DNA of 44,051 nucleotides from Escherichia phage Rao1: sequence record PQ221054. One strand, written 5' to 3'. Positions 943-43,912 of the stretch are shown piece by piece; position 1 is the stretch's first letter, and every line of letters starts with the position of its first letter. The translations under genes and the position numbers were made by a program. The notes beneath the pieces are model-generated. The model saw only the letters and a list, made by a program, of their open reading frames with translations. It had not been told where the DNA came from and made no database searches.

Positions 943-1466
943 TGTTTAACTTTAACGATGACAAACTAACAGCATAGCAGGTAATGAATATCGCCAGGCA
1001 AGATGGACTTTCGCCAGTCAGAATCGTAATAAATGCAAATGGGTATCGTCAGTCAACGCCATTCTGGGGTTAGATTGATACGTCAGATGTGTACTCAGGT
1101 GATGAGCTTGGTGTGCTAATTAAAATCATCAGGAAGATGGGAGTTAACGGGAAAGGAGTGGTTGGTGTCAGGTCTGTATATGAAGGAGCTCGAAAGGTTA
1201 AGCCTTTTGTTGGGCGTAATGGAGTGATGTTGCTCATCAAGGACAAGCTAATCCCAGAGCTCGACAAGATGAATGTTACATGTCTAATTGGCGATAAGGT
1301 TTATGTTCACCCCGCAATACTCAATGAGTGTTGGGAGCCTAACTTCAAGGTCTACGAAGGTAAGCATCCTAGTAGACTACCATACCACTTGCGGTACAGC
1401 GAGGAAGAGGTTGAGGCGGCGATGGAGTTTTATCGGGAAGCTAAATTACTCCTGAATGGACAATAG
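942..1466 (+). pseudogene. Decayed paralog of the 527-aa protein at 40851..42434: N-terminal piece with two in-frame TAG stops joined in frame to a C-terminal piece
   Basis: Translation from 942 gives MFNFNDDKLTA*QVMNIARQDGLSPVRIVINANGYRQSTPFWG*, matching the N-terminus MFDFNEDKLSVEQVMAIAATDNLPPLRVAINANGYRQS of the 527-aa protein. ORF 1089..1466 (NGKGVVGVRSVYEGARKVKPF...TCLIGDKVYVHP) matches its C-terminus (NGKGVVGVRSLYEAARKVKPF...TCLIGDKIYINP). Same frame throughout; about 400 codons missing. Confidence 0.65.
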
Positions 1467-1506
1467 CACGAATTGCTAAACAATCGCCGGAGAAATCCGG
1501 CATAAT
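1462..1506 (+). promoter_or_regulatory. Conserved box copy P1 (AATAGCACGAATTGCTAAA) with CATAAT hexamer 22 bp downstream
   Basis: Box 1462-1480, hexamer 1501-1506; downstream gene 1538..1747. Confidence 0.55.
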
Positions 1507-1537
1507 TACCACATCGACAACACGATGGAGTATAGAG

Positions 1538-1747
1538 ATGAGAATCAAGATTATTGAAGTTGACATTGCTGATGGTGACGAACTTAGCCTTGCTGATTGC
1601 GGTTTCCAGGTTGGTGATATTGTTGATGTTTCCGGTAAGTATAAAGATGGTAGCTTATCAGTTCAGGCGATTCGTGATACTGATTTAGTAACAATCGGCA
1701 ACGAGATTAGTTTGCAAGAAGGCGAATACGAGGTAATTGAAGAATGA
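1538..1747 (+). CDS. Hypothetical small acidic protein (69 aa)
   Basis: ORF directly downstream of box P1. Confidence 0.5.
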   Translation: MRIKIIEVDIADGDELSLADCGFQVGDIVDVSGKYKDGSLSVQAIRDTDLVTIGNEISLQEGEYEVIEE

Positions 1748-1923
1748 GATTCCGACAATCAGAACCAAAACTTCAGGCTAACCACTCCGACGGCTACGCA
1801 ACATTCATCATTGCTCAGGCTTGCGGAATGCGTGACGAACCTCAAGTTCACACCATCCACTTAACAGAAGAGCAAGCTAGAGAACTGGCTTACGAAATTC
1901 TTGAGCAATTGAACAAGATTTAA
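1744..1923 (+). CDS. Hypothetical small protein (59 aa)
   Basis: ATG overlaps upstream stop (ATGA); below the ORF-track size cutoff; translated by hand. Confidence 0.35.
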   Translation: MRFRQSEPKLQANHSDGYATFIIAQACGMRDEPQVHTIHLTEEQARELAYEILEQLNKI

Positions 1924-1933
1924 GGAAAACAAG

Positions 1934-2068
1934 ATGCACACGGAACTTATGATTGACGAGGTTTTAGTTGAGGCTTTACCATGGTTGTTGTGGTCTCTGG
2001 GCTTCGCGATTATTTACATTATTTCGGCAGCCGTAGACGATGCTAAAACGCATTCTAACGAACTATAA
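1934..2068 (+). CDS. Hypothetical small membrane protein (44 aa)
   Basis: Hand-translated; hydrophobic core LPWLLWSLGFAIIYIISAAV. Confidence 0.3.
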   Translation: MHTELMIDEVLVEALPWLLWSLGFAIIYIISAAVDDAKTHSNEL

Positions 2069-2086
2069 TTTAAGGCATGCGATTAG

Positions 2087-2245
2087 ATGGATAACTACGA
2101 AAAACCAAGCCAGTGGGCTAAGAGAATGATGGATGATGCTGAGACTGGCGAGATTGCCATGATGTACTTTGAGTTAATGAATATCTGGAAAGAGCGTGAG
2201 GAAAAGCGTGGTCTAAATAAGGGCGAGGATAAGAAAAATGCTTAA
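2087..2245 (+). CDS. Hypothetical small protein (52 aa)
   Basis: Hand-translated ORF in a tightly packed run of small genes. Confidence 0.3.
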   Translation: MDNYEKPSQWAKRMMDDAETGEIAMMYFELMNIWKEREEKRGLNKGEDKKNA

Positions 2246-2396
2246 CACATGTTTATTCCCGAAATGTGATGAATTTGTTGAGGATTTAATCTACTTCAAT
2301 GAGAAATACGGTGACACGTTTGAGTGCGATGGCGATACAGACGAAGTATTAGCAACTTTTGATAGAGGGCCAGATGTAGACAGCACGAATAGCTAA
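2238..2396 (+). CDS. Hypothetical small Cys-containing protein (52 aa)
   Basis: Hand-translated; overlaps the upstream gene; its 3' end overlaps box P2. Confidence 0.3.
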   Translation: MLNTCLFPKCDEFVEDLIYFNEKYGDTFECDGDTDEVLATFDRGPDVDSTNS

Positions 2397-2423
2397 ACGT
2401 GACAGGCATTGATGCCATATAAT
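2382..2423 (+). promoter_or_regulatory. Conserved box copy P2 (variant AGCACGAATAGCTAAA) with TATAAT hexamer
   Basis: TAGCTA 2390-2395, 22-bp spacer, TATAAT 2418-2423; downstream gene 2453..2689. Confidence 0.5.
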
Positions 2424-2452
2424 CAACCAATCAAACAACGAGAGGGCAGAAA

Positions 2453-42465: not shown

Positions 42466-42514
42466 TTATATCAACAGCCGCTTATAATGCATTATCAATT
42501 CGTGCTGCTATTTG
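42466..42514 (-). promoter_or_regulatory. Conserved box copy P14 (minus strand AAATAGCAGCACGAATTGATAA, degenerate) with perfect TATAAT
   Basis: Minus-strand TTGATA, 21-bp spacer, TATAAT (plus 42466-42471); upstream of the 527-aa gene. Confidence 0.5.
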
Positions 42515-42861
42515 TAAGATGATTCAAATAGGTAAGTCTGGCAAAGAGTGTAGAAACCAACATCTTCGCTTCGATATAGCTGCCATGCATTACCATCTTC
42601 GTCGTAAATGTAACCAGCAGACTGACCCATCCCGCTATGCATTAGCACCTGGTATCTCTTTCCTTCTTTGAAATCCTTCTTAACGCCAGATTTGTGGTTA
42701 ACATGTGTCACGTAAAGCGTTCTGGTCTTAATGTATTTACCACGTTCTTCCAGATTAACCCATTTGCCATCTTTCTTGATTTGCTCGACACCATCTTTAA
42801 CGCGAGCTTTAAACAGTTGGTTGTCTTTGCTAATGAAATTTTTAGTTATGGTAGTAGTCAT
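42508..42861 (-). CDS. Hypothetical protein (117 aa)
   Basis: ORF in a minus-strand operon; overlapping start with the upstream gene. Confidence 0.45.
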   Translation of the reverse strand: MTTTITKNFISKDNQLFKARVKDGVEQIKKDGKWVNLEERGKYIKTRTLYVTHVNHKSGVKKDFKEGKRYQVLMHSGMGQSAGYIYDEDGNAWQLYRSEDVGFYTLCQTYLFESSYK

Positions 42862-43025
42862 TATTCAGCCCTCTCTTTTGTAGTCCACATGAATTTGTTT
42901 GGTACTGATTTGCGCACGATACGCACAACAATCTTATCAACTTTCTGAACTAAACCGTAAATCTTTCCATCAAGCGAGGCCCTGAAAACTGCCTCTTCCA
43001 TCGCGTCGTAAAAGTTGTCAAACAT
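42861..43025 (-). CDS. Hypothetical small protein (54 aa)
   Basis: Hand-translated MFDNFYDAMEEAVFRASLDGKIYGLVQK...; directly downstream of box P15 and its leader. Confidence 0.3.
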   Translation of the reverse strand: MFDNFYDAMEEAVFRASLDGKIYGLVQKVDKIVVRIVRKSVPNKFMWTTKERAE

Positions 43026-43057
43026 GATTACTTGTTCTCTTTCGTTTCGATGAGGAA

Positions 43058-43104
43058 ACTATACAACAAAAGCCCCGAAGGGCTTTAGCAATTCGTGCTA
43101 TTTC
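43058..43104 (-). promoter_or_regulatory. Conserved box copy P15 (minus strand AAATAGCACGAATTGCTAAAG) with TATAGT hexamer; the spacer contains a hairpin
   Basis: Minus-strand TTGCTA, 22-bp spacer containing GCCCTTCGGGGC, then TATAGT and the CATCGAAACGAAAG leader. Confidence 0.5.
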
Positions 43105-43249
43105 TCGCCTTCTCAATCGCCTTAAGCATAATCTCGTGAGATTCAAGCAAGTCCTCGTTGAACCATTCCCCGCAAGGCCAGCCCTTGCCGCTGTAAGAAC
43201 TAATAACTTCCAGATCAAAATAGTTAATCTCAGATGGTAATAGCATCAT
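43085..43249 (-). CDS. Hypothetical small protein (54 aa) whose C-terminus NSTNC-stop is encoded by box P15
   Basis: Hand-translated MMLLPSEINYFDLEVISSYSGKGWPCGEWFNEDLLESHEIMLKAIEKARNSTNC; ATGA overlap with the upstream gene. Confidence 0.3.
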   Translation of the reverse strand: MMLLPSEINYFDLEVISSYSGKGWPCGEWFNEDLLESHEIMLKAIEKARNSTNC

Positions 43250-43449
43250 TCAATCACCTTAAAAGTTGCGATGCCTGGGATGACGACGTAATCAAGGCAT
43301 TTAAGAGCCTGAAACGTGTCGTGATGCTTATGTGGACGCTCTCCGGTAACAAGGCACATGTCATCTTTGAAATCGGTAGCGTTGTATTCAGAGCCCTTAT
43401 TGAACGCGTCGTTAAAGTCTTTAATGATATTGGTGCAAAGTAGTTTCAT
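43246..43449 (-). CDS. Hypothetical protein (67 aa)
   Basis: ORF in a minus-strand operon. Confidence 0.4.
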   Translation of the reverse strand: MKLLCTNIIKDFNDAFNKGSEYNATDFKDDMCLVTGERPHKHHDTFQALKCLDYVVIPGIATFKVIE

Positions 43450-43450
43450 G

Positions 43451-43669
43451 CTAACCTTCTACTGTTTCAAAAATAAGCCTATTTTTAATTGCTGCAATGA
43501 CACGTCCATCATCAATGTAGCAGTAAACTGGTTTGAAGTTGTCACCAACTACGTAACCATAAATTTCATCATAAATGTAATGCTTTCCGTTTCTAAATTC
43601 CCAGGTTCCATCATTAAGATTATTTAAGCACTTAACTTTCATCATCTCATTCCTTGCCAGGGTAAACAT
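43451..43669 (-). CDS. Hypothetical protein (72 aa; start may be a downstream ATG)
   Basis: ORF in a minus-strand operon; overlaps the upstream ORF. Confidence 0.4.
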   Translation of the reverse strand: MFTLARNEMMKVKCLNNLNDGTWEFRNGKHYIYDEIYGYVVGDNFKPVYCYIDDGRVIAAIKNRLIFETVEG

Positions 43670-43839
43670 TCGTCACAGCCCAAGCCATCACAACATAGAT
43701 ACTCATCATCTGACTGGAATTGCTTAGCGAGGTCAATATCAATCTTGCCGCGCAAAACCATATCGCTGTACATCTCGTTCAACCCAATCAGAGCGCATTC
43801 CTGCTTTAGCTGCTCATACGCTTCGTCTTTAAGTTTCAT
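43642..43839 (-). CDS. Hypothetical Cys-rich small protein (65 aa)
   Basis: CCDGLGCDEC cluster suggests metal binding; first gene after box P16. Confidence 0.4.
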   Translation of the reverse strand: MKLKDEAYEQLKQECALIGLNEMYSDMVLRGKIDIDLAKQFQSDDEYLCCDGLGCDECLPWQGMR

Positions 43840-43866
43840 ATCTCTCTCCTCGTTGTTGATGGATTC

Positions 43867-43912
43867 ATTATGGTCTCGTTACCAATGTTTGTCATTAGCA
43901 AAAAGTGCTATT
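43867..43912 (-). promoter_or_regulatory. Conserved box copy P16 (minus strand AATAGCACTTTTTGCTAATG) with CATAAT hexamer
   Basis: Minus-strand TTGCTA, 22/23-bp spacer, CATAAT (plus 43867-43872), then the CATCAACAACGAGGAGAG leader. Confidence 0.5.

Follow-up and report, generated by a model that had tools for sequence, protein, structure and literature searches.

What is the function of the short box that recurs along the genomes of T1-like phages? It has been a standing question since the T1 genome was sequenced, and the transcription programme of these phages, which are among the commonest coliphages and widespread in therapy cocktails, is essentially unmapped. We analyzed the box in Escherichia phage Rao1 (sequence record PQ221054), whose complete stretch of 44,051 nucleotides is called the window below. 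The first 20 kb of the window were 96.7% identical to Escherichia phage CY1_Cui-2023 (Drexlerviridae, Braunvirinae, Christensenvirus), and ACG-M12, Rtp, and T1 were more distant relatives; the window is essentially an entire T1-like genome. An original prediction, made from this DNA alone, had listed 16 copies of the box, most of them followed by a TATAAT-like hexamer, as a candidate phage-specific promoter class. As described below, the box matches the marbox, the site of the host activators MarA, SoxS, and Rob, at the class II position, so the phage probably borrows these stress-response activators from its host. Judged from sequence, the probability that the box and the hexamer constitute sigma-70 promoters of the class II Mar/Sox/Rob type, bound by a host activator, is about 0.6.

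A repeated box at a fixed distance from a −10 element

The box was written as ATAGCAC-NNW-TTGYTAAA, and offsets were counted from the A of ATAGCAC to the start of the hexamer. The AATAGCACNNNTTGYTAAA pattern gave 13 matches in the window at two or fewer mismatches compared with 0.13 expected from shuffles, indicating that the repeated box is real. Looser copies were present at 2380 (+), 42508 (−), and 10207 (+), the last of which was missing from the earlier list. Fourteen of the 16 listed copies held, and these point toward the next gene, as does the weak extra copy at 10207. The other two failed: the sequence at 3090 is degenerate (ATAGCGCAATCGCTACTTAA), with seven marbox mismatches and without a −10, and that at 31474 is a good box without a −10 and is not directed at the next gene, because it lies on the plus strand between two minus-strand genes.

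Thirteen window sites had a −10-like hexamer at an offset of exactly 38; the offset was 37 for site 32999 and 39 for site 43911. An offset of 38 places the hexamer 22 bp past TTGYTA, so the predicted spacing of 21–22 bp in 14 of 16 copies was reproduced. Spacing was also analyzed in 319 unique box contexts from the window, T1, Rtp, ACG-M12, CY1, and T1-like contigs of IMG/VR, where the box scan returned many such contigs with several copies each. A strong −10 was found at offset 38 in 55% of these contexts and at offsets 37 and 39 in 4% and 9%, respectively; each remaining offset between −55 and +129 gave about 1%, indicating that the spacing is not a product of chance.

The hexamer-aligned consensus was T(−17)..T(−15)G(−14)g-TATAAT-tACCyC-A(+1)TCGAAAC, in which the start region reads ATCGAAAC. 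Among 274 aligned sites, T−12 was conserved in 85%, A−11 in 99%, and T−7 in 100%, together with G−14 in 78% and T−15 in 44%; a full TG preceded the −10 at 5 of 15 window sites. The canonical −35 position reads AAAACn; thus, there is no −35, and the upstream box replaces it, with 22 bp from TTGYTA to the −10. The hexamers have the features of sigma-70 −10 elements, often of the extended type, and we conclude with high confidence that the box-hexamer units are promoters of an activator-type architecture lacking a −35, as had been anticipated.

The A/C-rich leader noted in the original prediction was likewise confirmed as a conserved consensus after the −10, with A at the predicted +1 in 82% of the aligned sites and C before it. 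The +1 positions were predicted from the −10 only. The resulting 5′ untranslated regions (5′ UTRs) are short (21–35 nucleotides), A/C-rich, and poor in G and U, and the box start lies 71–85 nucleotides from the start codon. Conservation extends to the initial transcribed sequence ATCGAAAC(G)AAAC, for example at 35540–35555, 26236–26250, and 43037–43051, which could enhance translation or reflect a preference in start-site choice. The same core, consisting of an extended −10, a 6-nucleotide discriminator, and an A/C-rich start, was also observed in predicted promoters that have no box, with the −10 at 27537, 3484, 13977, and 9219 (+); one example is TGGTATAAT at 3481–3489, after a terminator. 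These box-less promoters may be activator-independent units.

The box fits the marbox of host activators

The soxbox/marbox consensus has been given as AYNGCACNNWNNRYYAAAYN (PMC2064960), and a MarA motif derived from chromatin immunoprecipitation sequencing (ChIP-seq) as 5′-GCAnnWWnTGnnAAA-3′ (PMC12052159). The phage box fits both published definitions with zero mismatches. As counted in the window, AYNGCACNNWNNRYYAAAYN had five exact 19-nucleotide matches compared with 0.04 expected, the 18-nucleotide marbox core occurred 18 times at one mismatch or fewer compared with 1.95 expected, and GCAnnWWnTGnnAAA had 11 exact matches compared with 0.99 expected, all 11 being phage boxes. Together with a geometry equal to that of the class II promoter of E. 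coli micF (see below), this fit contradicts the proposal that the box is phage-specific.

Circularity was avoided by defining promoters in T1-like sequences without the box, as −10 + N6 + ATCRAMA. The box was carried by 123 of the 155 promoters defined in this way, at offset 38 (107 promoters), 39 (14), or 37 (2), and the box match count across the 155 was bimodal, at either 3–8 or 12–14 of 14. In the 123 box sites, 18 of the 19 specified marbox positions showed at least 95% allowed bases. The phage box varied where the marbox allows it, with T or C at position 2, positions 8–10 free except for W at 10, and C or T at position 14; position 19 was an exception to the marbox degeneracy, being mostly A as in micF.

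Conservation of the box was asymmetric, since G4 was found in 100% of the sites and the mirror position 14 was C in 65% and T in 33%. This asymmetry argues against a symmetric dimer, as which the binding factor had been pictured from the partial palindrome, and it is predicted by the marbox consensus for a monomeric protein that carries a pair of helix-turn-helix (HTH) motifs.

The E. coli mar marbox, GATTTAGCAAAACGTGGCAT, was confirmed in the MG1655 sequence. A box of Klebsiella phage Shelby (ATAGCACGTTTTGCTAAAAC) and this mar marbox have a run of 14 bases, CACGTTTTGCTAAA, in common. We also observed that the predicted marbox of the rob promoter, AATAGCATTTTTTGC (S2 Table, PMC12052159), is identical at 14 of 15 positions to the 5′ part of the T-type box AATAGCACTTTTTGC, although this likeness may be a coincidence.

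Promoter geometry corresponds to that of micF

Class II Mar/Sox/Rob promoters carry a forward marbox that overlaps the −35 and is centered between −36 and −55 (PMC12052159, PMC6900184), and a cryogenic electron microscopy study of RamA on micF placed the center of the site near −41, with CACT-7X-AAA on the top strand (PMC8811837). The micF marbox of E. coli MG1655, ACAGCACTGAATGTCAAAAC, begins 38 nucleotides before the −10 TAGAAT and 51 nucleotides before the annotated micF 5′ end, with AAAACA at the −35 position. The phage box extends from −50 to −31 relative to the predicted +1, is centered at about −40.5, and is in the forward orientation with GCAC distal and AAA proximal. The two thus share a 20-bp asymmetric forward marbox over the −35, a 38-nucleotide offset to the −10, a center near −41, AAAAC(A) at the −35 position, and the CAC[G/T]-N7-AAA orientation. 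In contrast to host class II promoters, the phage sites are in a virulent phage genome, where about 15 copies make up the dominant promoter type, and, compared with host marboxes, the boxes deviate much less from the consensus and from each other. The phage sites also have a stronger, often extended −10, a conserved initial transcribed sequence, and a hairpin between box and start; on the phage side, we infer activator binding from the sequence.

We propose that the 20-bp forward marbox (−50 to −31), which covers the place of the −35 hexamer, would be bound by a monomeric AraC-family activator with two HTH motifs, most likely the host's own. Candidates would be Rob, which is constitutive, MarA or SoxS, which are induced by stress, and RamA in Klebsiella. 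GCAC would contact one HTH and YAAA the other, and the bound activator would touch sigma-70 region 4 and the alpha C-terminal domain. In this manner, RNA polymerase would be helped onto a promoter without a −35 whose −10 (TGgTATAAT) is good and often extended. The conserved CA 7 nucleotides past the hexamer would be the start of transcription, and the resulting leaders, short and A/C-rich (AUCGAAAC...), would precede the Shine-Dalgarno sequence.

Other known systems fitted less well. The MotA box is centered at about −30, 11–13 bp from the −10. T4 middle promoters, which combine a MotA box with sigma appropriation by AsiA and to which the original prediction loosely compared these sites, likewise have a box in place of the −35 and a good, often extended −10, and the phage box contains TGCT. 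However, the analogy fails on position, because the phage box is centered at about −40.5 instead of −30, with 18 bp from the box end to the −10, and its sequence fits a host activator site. No MotA or AsiA annotation appeared among ten window proteins compared with Pfam and ten compared with PHROGs, in searches that were not aimed at these proteins. Lambda cI at OR2/PRM and CRP at galP1, both class II, also place an activator near −41/−42 where it touches sigma region 4, and galP1 is an extended −10 promoter without a −35. However, cI and CRP are dimers on symmetric sites, whereas the phage box is asymmetric and strictly oriented.

Sigma-54 promoters contain GG-N10-GC (−24/−12) within TGGCAC-N5-TTGCW. 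The corresponding part of the box is AG-N8-GC (ATAGCAC-N3-TTGC), which is 2 bp short and has no GG, and the neighboring 527-residue "AAA ATPase", considered as a sigma-54 enhancer-binding protein, proved to be a helicase-like DUF3987 protein; both were rejected. UP elements consist of A/T only, lie between −59 and −38, and are contacted by the alpha C-terminal domain. Membership in this class was rejected on the basis of the invariant GCAC and TG and the −50 to −31 span of the box. None of the IHF, Fis, CRP, FNR, and sigma-28 consensus sequences, compared by eye, fitted.

The element in related phages

The box itself is not new. The 2024 reannotation of phage TLS described the same element as a 21-nucleotide direct repeat (DR1–18), aaATAGCACnnnTTGnTAAAA, with 21 copies oriented with transcription about 76 nucleotides upstream of start codons and with subtypes A, T, and G, and reported it to be present in T1, Rtp, and Rogue1 too (PMC11447400). 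The original prediction had left undecided whether the element was already known. The consensus, the subtypes (GAA, TTT, and A-type), and the orientation are the same as in the window, where 14 of 15 boxes run in the direction of the next gene, and the distance of about 76 nucleotides compares with 71–85 here. The TLS authors recognized only three canonical sigma-70 promoters and considered the repeat a stoperator, an enhancer-binding site, or a UP-like element, leaving the matter undecided (PMC11447400). The fixed −10 spacing, the marbox match, and the embedded hairpin are not in that paper, which makes no mention of MarA, SoxS, Rob, or AraC (PMC11447400), and the Rogue1 paper does not mention the repeat. 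Our literature search, which did not extend to the 2004 T1 and 2006 Rtp genome papers, found no paper linking the marbox with these phages, and no transcription-start mapping was found for any Drexlerviridae phage. The identification of class II marbox promoters therefore appears not to be in the searched literature.

Exact matches to the marbox core numbered 9–17 per genome in T1, Rtp, ACG-M12, CY1, and the Klebsiella Webervirus Shelby compared with 0.1 or fewer expected, and nearly all copies in these five genomes had a −10 at offsets 37–39. Conservation of the box thus spans Drexlerviridae of E. coli and Klebsiella. The hosts of these phages all have activators of the Mar/Sox/Rob type. Aeromonas phage Avpd1, taken as an out-of-host comparison, had zero copies of the core, although, as a phage outside the Drexlerviridae, it is a weak control.

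Candidate binding proteins and alternative explanations

We analyzed which protein might bind the box. MarA and SoxS, used as tblastn queries against the phage genomes (the MarA query was checked against PDB 1BL0), gave nothing significant, and weak full-length alignments fell within the DUF3987 protein and were rejected as noise. Ten candidate proteins showed no AraC-type domain in Pfam and PHROGs. The sole clear transcription regulator of the phage is a 160-residue protein with a Cro/cI-type HTH at 32504–32986 (−), which belongs to phrog_2856 and is the orthologue of T1 gp23 (Pfam, PHROGs). Its recognition helix varies among phages with an invariant box (SNQAVS, SNQTVQ, TPQAVE, THAVVS, and SIQVVQ), which argues against this regulator as a symmetric dimer binder. 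Two further proteins are annotated as HTH-like in T1, and their homologues of 111 and 117 residues, encoded at 40512–40847 (−) and 42508–42861 (−), are conserved across T1-like phages and restricted to them. The AlphaFold2 model of the 111-residue protein is winged-helix-like with a C-terminal helical tail (predicted local distance difference test score, 95); its best PDB match was not significant (E 0.18), and MarA, Rob, SoxS, and RamA were not among the matches. The model of the 117-residue protein is all-beta and of low confidence. Since no phage MarA was found, the regulator helix varies, and the box is asymmetric, a host activator is the most economical binder; on balance, we favor host MarA, SoxS, or Rob as the working activators.

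Some points weigh against this view. The start sites are predicted from the −10, and activator binding is deduced from the sequence. Positions 3, 11, and 12 of the box are conserved beyond the older marbox consensus; the ChIP-seq motif accounts for T12-G13 but leaves A3 and T11 unexplained, and this extra conservation could reflect a different or additional binder. A non-homologous phage protein of the same specificity is possible, the structure and profile searches having covered few phage proteins. Furthermore, strict dependence on MarA, SoxS, or Rob is doubtful because T1-like phages grow well in unstressed cells, where levels of MarA and SoxS are low and most of the Rob is reportedly sequestered without inducers (PMC2787020). 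Basal activity from the extended −10 may be substantial, and the marbox would then serve to boost it.

Among the alternatives, an unlikely one is that a phage-encoded dimer binds the partial palindrome TAGCA-N5-TGCTA at about −42 and activates transcription in the manner of lambda cI, which acts on PRM from OR2; the likeness to the marbox would then be coincidental or convergent. The 160-residue Cro/cI-like regulator and the 111-residue winged-helix-like protein would be the candidates. The perfect palindrome occurs seven times in the window, and the regulator is kept in all Drexlerviridae examined; its gene is divergent from a box promoter and has a box in its own leader, and the TLS counterpart has one of the only three canonical sigma-70 promoters (PMC11447400), as would be expected of an early master regulator. 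The conservation of positions 3 and 11 beyond the marbox consensus would also be accommodated. However, a dimer fits poorly with the asymmetric conservation (G4 against position 14), with the strict orientation of the boxes relative to the −10, and with a recognition helix that varies among phages sharing an invariant box. It is very unlikely that a zero-mismatch fit to two independent marbox definitions, combined with the exact micF spacing, arose by chance, and a separate cluster of TTGCA-N5-TGCAA palindromes looks more operator-like for a dimer. Less probable still is that no protein factor is involved and sigma-70 RNA polymerase reads the box as a UP-element-like or curved, A/T-phased element that offsets the absent −35. 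The TLS authors suggested UP-like enhancers (PMC11447400), and in line with this, A/T blocks lie at about −51, −41, and −34, one helical turn apart, the −10 is strong and often extended, and TTTT-NNN-AAA of the T-type box resembles part of the UP consensus. However, the invariant positions contain G and C (GCAC, TG), bases that are not a requirement of UP elements, the T-tract is missing from GAA-type boxes, the element is about 8 bp downstream of the UP position, and the marbox match is far more specific.

We consider it very improbable that the box acts at another level, as a stoperator-like roadblock or repressor site, as a signal for RNA processing or termination together with the hairpin, or as a Mar/Sox/Rob decoy, with an incidental −10. 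A stoperator was raised for TLS (PMC11447400), the boxes overlap stop codons of upstream genes, with a hairpin after most copies, and the orphan box at 31476 has no promoter. Nevertheless, the 38-nucleotide spacing to a −10 in which A−11 and T−7 reach 99–100%, together with the CA start, constitutes a promoter constraint at the DNA level, hairpin strength tracks the upstream gene rather than the box, and Rfam gave no match.

A wider proposition, whose chances we regard as even, is that virulent Drexlerviridae of E. coli, Shigella, and Klebsiella have wired most of their promoters to host MarA, SoxS, Rob, and RamA through near-consensus class II marboxes, with stress-boosted expression, titration of the activators, and hairpin-insulated units. 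Phage expression would then be boosted by signals that turn on antibiotic tolerance, namely bile salts and dipyridyl (through Rob), salicylate (MarA), and superoxide (SoxS); hundreds of replicating phage genomes would titrate the activators off acrAB, tolC, and micF; and neighboring transcription units would be insulated by the terminator-like hairpin nested in each promoter. Functional marboxes would explain how a phage that has neither RNA polymerase nor sigma factor, and almost no canonical promoters, is transcribed. They would couple phage growth to the multidrug-tolerance regulon of the host, making phage-antibiotic and phage-bile interactions predictable and testable, and would offer a compact, strong, activator-tunable promoter set with built-in insulation. 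If a phage protein binds the box instead, it would be a new mimic of MarA specificity.

A hairpin between the box and the start

A further layer, absent from the original prediction, is a hairpin. The 34 nucleotides at offsets 20–53 folded with a mean of −7.9 kcal/mol compared with −3.9 kcal/mol for shuffled sequences, and −6 kcal/mol or lower was reached in 57% of the contexts compared with 10% of the shuffles; other parts of the context showed no such signal. G+C-rich inverted repeats were observed, for example, at 35506–35545, 28760–28797, and 42455–42492, and at T1 and Shelby sites too. Two forms were present. In form A, the hairpin has a tetraloop, often GAAA or TTCG, and ends at the first −10 base, so that the T-rich −10 and the discriminator form its tail; in T1, some of these hairpins carry a terminator annotation. 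Form B, which has no U-tract, is a G+C-rich repeat of 6 bp in which −24 to −19 pairs with −6 to −1 of the discriminator and the extended −10 lies in a 12-nucleotide loop, as in GGGGTA...TACCCC.

The mean hairpin energy was −11.6 (n = 215) where a co-directional open reading frame of at least 60 codons ends at the box and −6.5 (n = 27) otherwise (Mann-Whitney p = 1.7e-6, with counts that are not independent because the genomes are related). A transcript from +1 lacks the 5′ arm, so the hairpin could act on read-through RNA only. Most likely, the hairpin is a separate layer in the read-through RNA from the upstream gene, serving as a terminator, pause, or 3′ stabilizer. A main role as a promoter requirement, as a cruciform or in an N4-like way, was rejected because hairpin strength depends on the upstream co-directional gene and form A hairpins are annotated terminators in T1.

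Promoters along the window

On the plus strand, the leftmost promoter (1463–1513) has its marbox at 1463–1482 (ATAGCACGAATTGCTAAACA, zero mismatches), the spacer hairpin CCGGAgaaaTCCGG, and the −10 CATAAT at 1501–1506, with a predicted +1 at 1513 and the next gene at 1538. At 2380–2430, the marbox at 2380–2399 (ACAGCACGAATAGCTAAACG, zero mismatches) is followed by TATAAT at 2418–2423, the predicted +1 at 2430, and a gene start at 2453. The promoter at 4036–4086, upstream of the large terminase, combines a marbox at 4036–4055 (GTAGCACTTTTTGTTAAAAG) with TG and GATAAT at 4074–4079 and a hairpin that spans the −10; its predicted +1 is 4086 and the gene start 4108. The weaker extra copy at 10207–10257 (+), upstream of an HNH/AP2 gene, has a marbox at 10207–10226 (ATAGCACTAAATGACAAAAC), the terminator-like hairpin CCACCgaaaGGTGG, and a −10 TATTTT at 10245–10250. 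In the tail-gene region, the promoter at 13486–13536 (+) follows directly after a terminator, with its marbox at 13486–13505, TG and TATTAT at 13524–13529, and a predicted +1 at 13536 (ATCGAAAC).

Two minus-strand promoters follow. That at 26250–26300 has its marbox at 26281–26300 (ATAGCACTAATTGCTAAACA, zero mismatches), the −10 TATTAT at 26257–26262, and a predicted +1 at 26250. That at 27042–27092, with a marbox at 27073–27092, TATATT at 27049–27054, and a predicted +1 at 27042, would drive a Rha/KilA-like gene (26297–26968); its hairpin is weak, and there is no upstream co-directional gene. The recombinase gene (start 28817) is preceded by a plus-strand promoter at 28744–28794, with the marbox at 28744–28763, TATGAT at 28782–28787, a predicted +1 at 28794, and the hairpin GGGGTA..TACCCC around the −10.

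The promoter of the helicase gene at 32999–33048 (+) has a zero-mismatch marbox at 32999–33018, TG and TATTAT at 33036–33041 (offset 37), a predicted +1 at 33048, and the gene start at 33083, and it is divergent from the regulator gene. The latter apparently has a TATAAT promoter on the minus strand (32987–33082), followed by aacagc-CATCGAAC, without a marbox. Its −10 is the reverse complement of the helicase promoter −10 region, and its 5′ UTR contains box 32999 in reverse complement, immediately ahead of the Shine-Dalgarno sequence. Such divergent overlapping promoters could give autoregulation.

Further plus-strand promoters were located at 35490–35540, 37830–37880, and 39040–39090. The first has its marbox at 35490–35509, TATTAT at 35528–35533, a predicted +1 at 35540, and a 9-bp inverted repeat GATGAAGTG..CACTTCATC around the −10 (−17.4 kcal/mol). 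The second precedes the polynucleotide kinase gene (start 37904), with a marbox at 37830–37849, the hairpin CCCAGAgaaaTCTGGG ending at the −10, TATATT at 37868–37873, and a predicted +1 at 37880. The third has a zero-mismatch marbox at 39040–39059, TATAAT at 39078–39083, a predicted +1 at 39090, and a gene start at 39115.

The remaining promoters are on the minus strand. At 42458–42508, a degenerate box (42489–42508; GCAGCACGAATTGATAATGC, four mismatches) is combined with TG and TATAAT at 42465–42470 and a predicted +1 at 42458, from which the DUF3987 helicase-like gene (start 42434) would be driven. The promoter at 43051–43101 has its marbox at 43082–43101, a terminator hairpin GCCCttcgGGGC with a T-run within the spacer, the −10 TATAGT at 43058–43063, and a predicted +1 at 43051. 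The first right-arm gene (start 43839) is served by the promoter at 43860–43911, with a marbox at 43892–43911, CATAAT at 43867–43872 (offset 39), and a predicted +1 at 43860.

Just upstream of this last promoter, four 15-bp palindromes TTGCA-N5-TGCAA were observed at 43931–44022, three of them perfect and one with one mismatch, at spacings of 30, 17, and 30 bp. The cluster is present in CY1 and not in ACG-M12, Rtp, or Shelby, and T1 has one copy at its left end. From its sequence, it looks like an operator set for a dimeric regulator.

The orphan marbox, listed earlier as 31474, is at 31476–31495 (+) (ATAGCACTAATTGATAAAAT) and is near-perfect, with no −10 at offsets 36–40. It is antisense to both flanking minus-strand genes (tail fibre and primase). 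On the minus strand, it comes just after a TAGAAT that precedes the tail-fibre gene, and it could act negatively there. The non-member listed earlier as 3090 occupies 3092–3111 (+) and is a decayed copy 25 nucleotides upstream of a tRNA-Arg gene (anticodon CCT; 3118–3193). The tRNA was the only match in the Rfam scan, with none for the leaders or the box-hairpin. AT-rich simple repeats, (AT)n followed by (ATT)n, were observed in the left-end control region (127–201) and in a divergent intergenic region (27214–27264), and these could be origin-like or strongly bent DNA.

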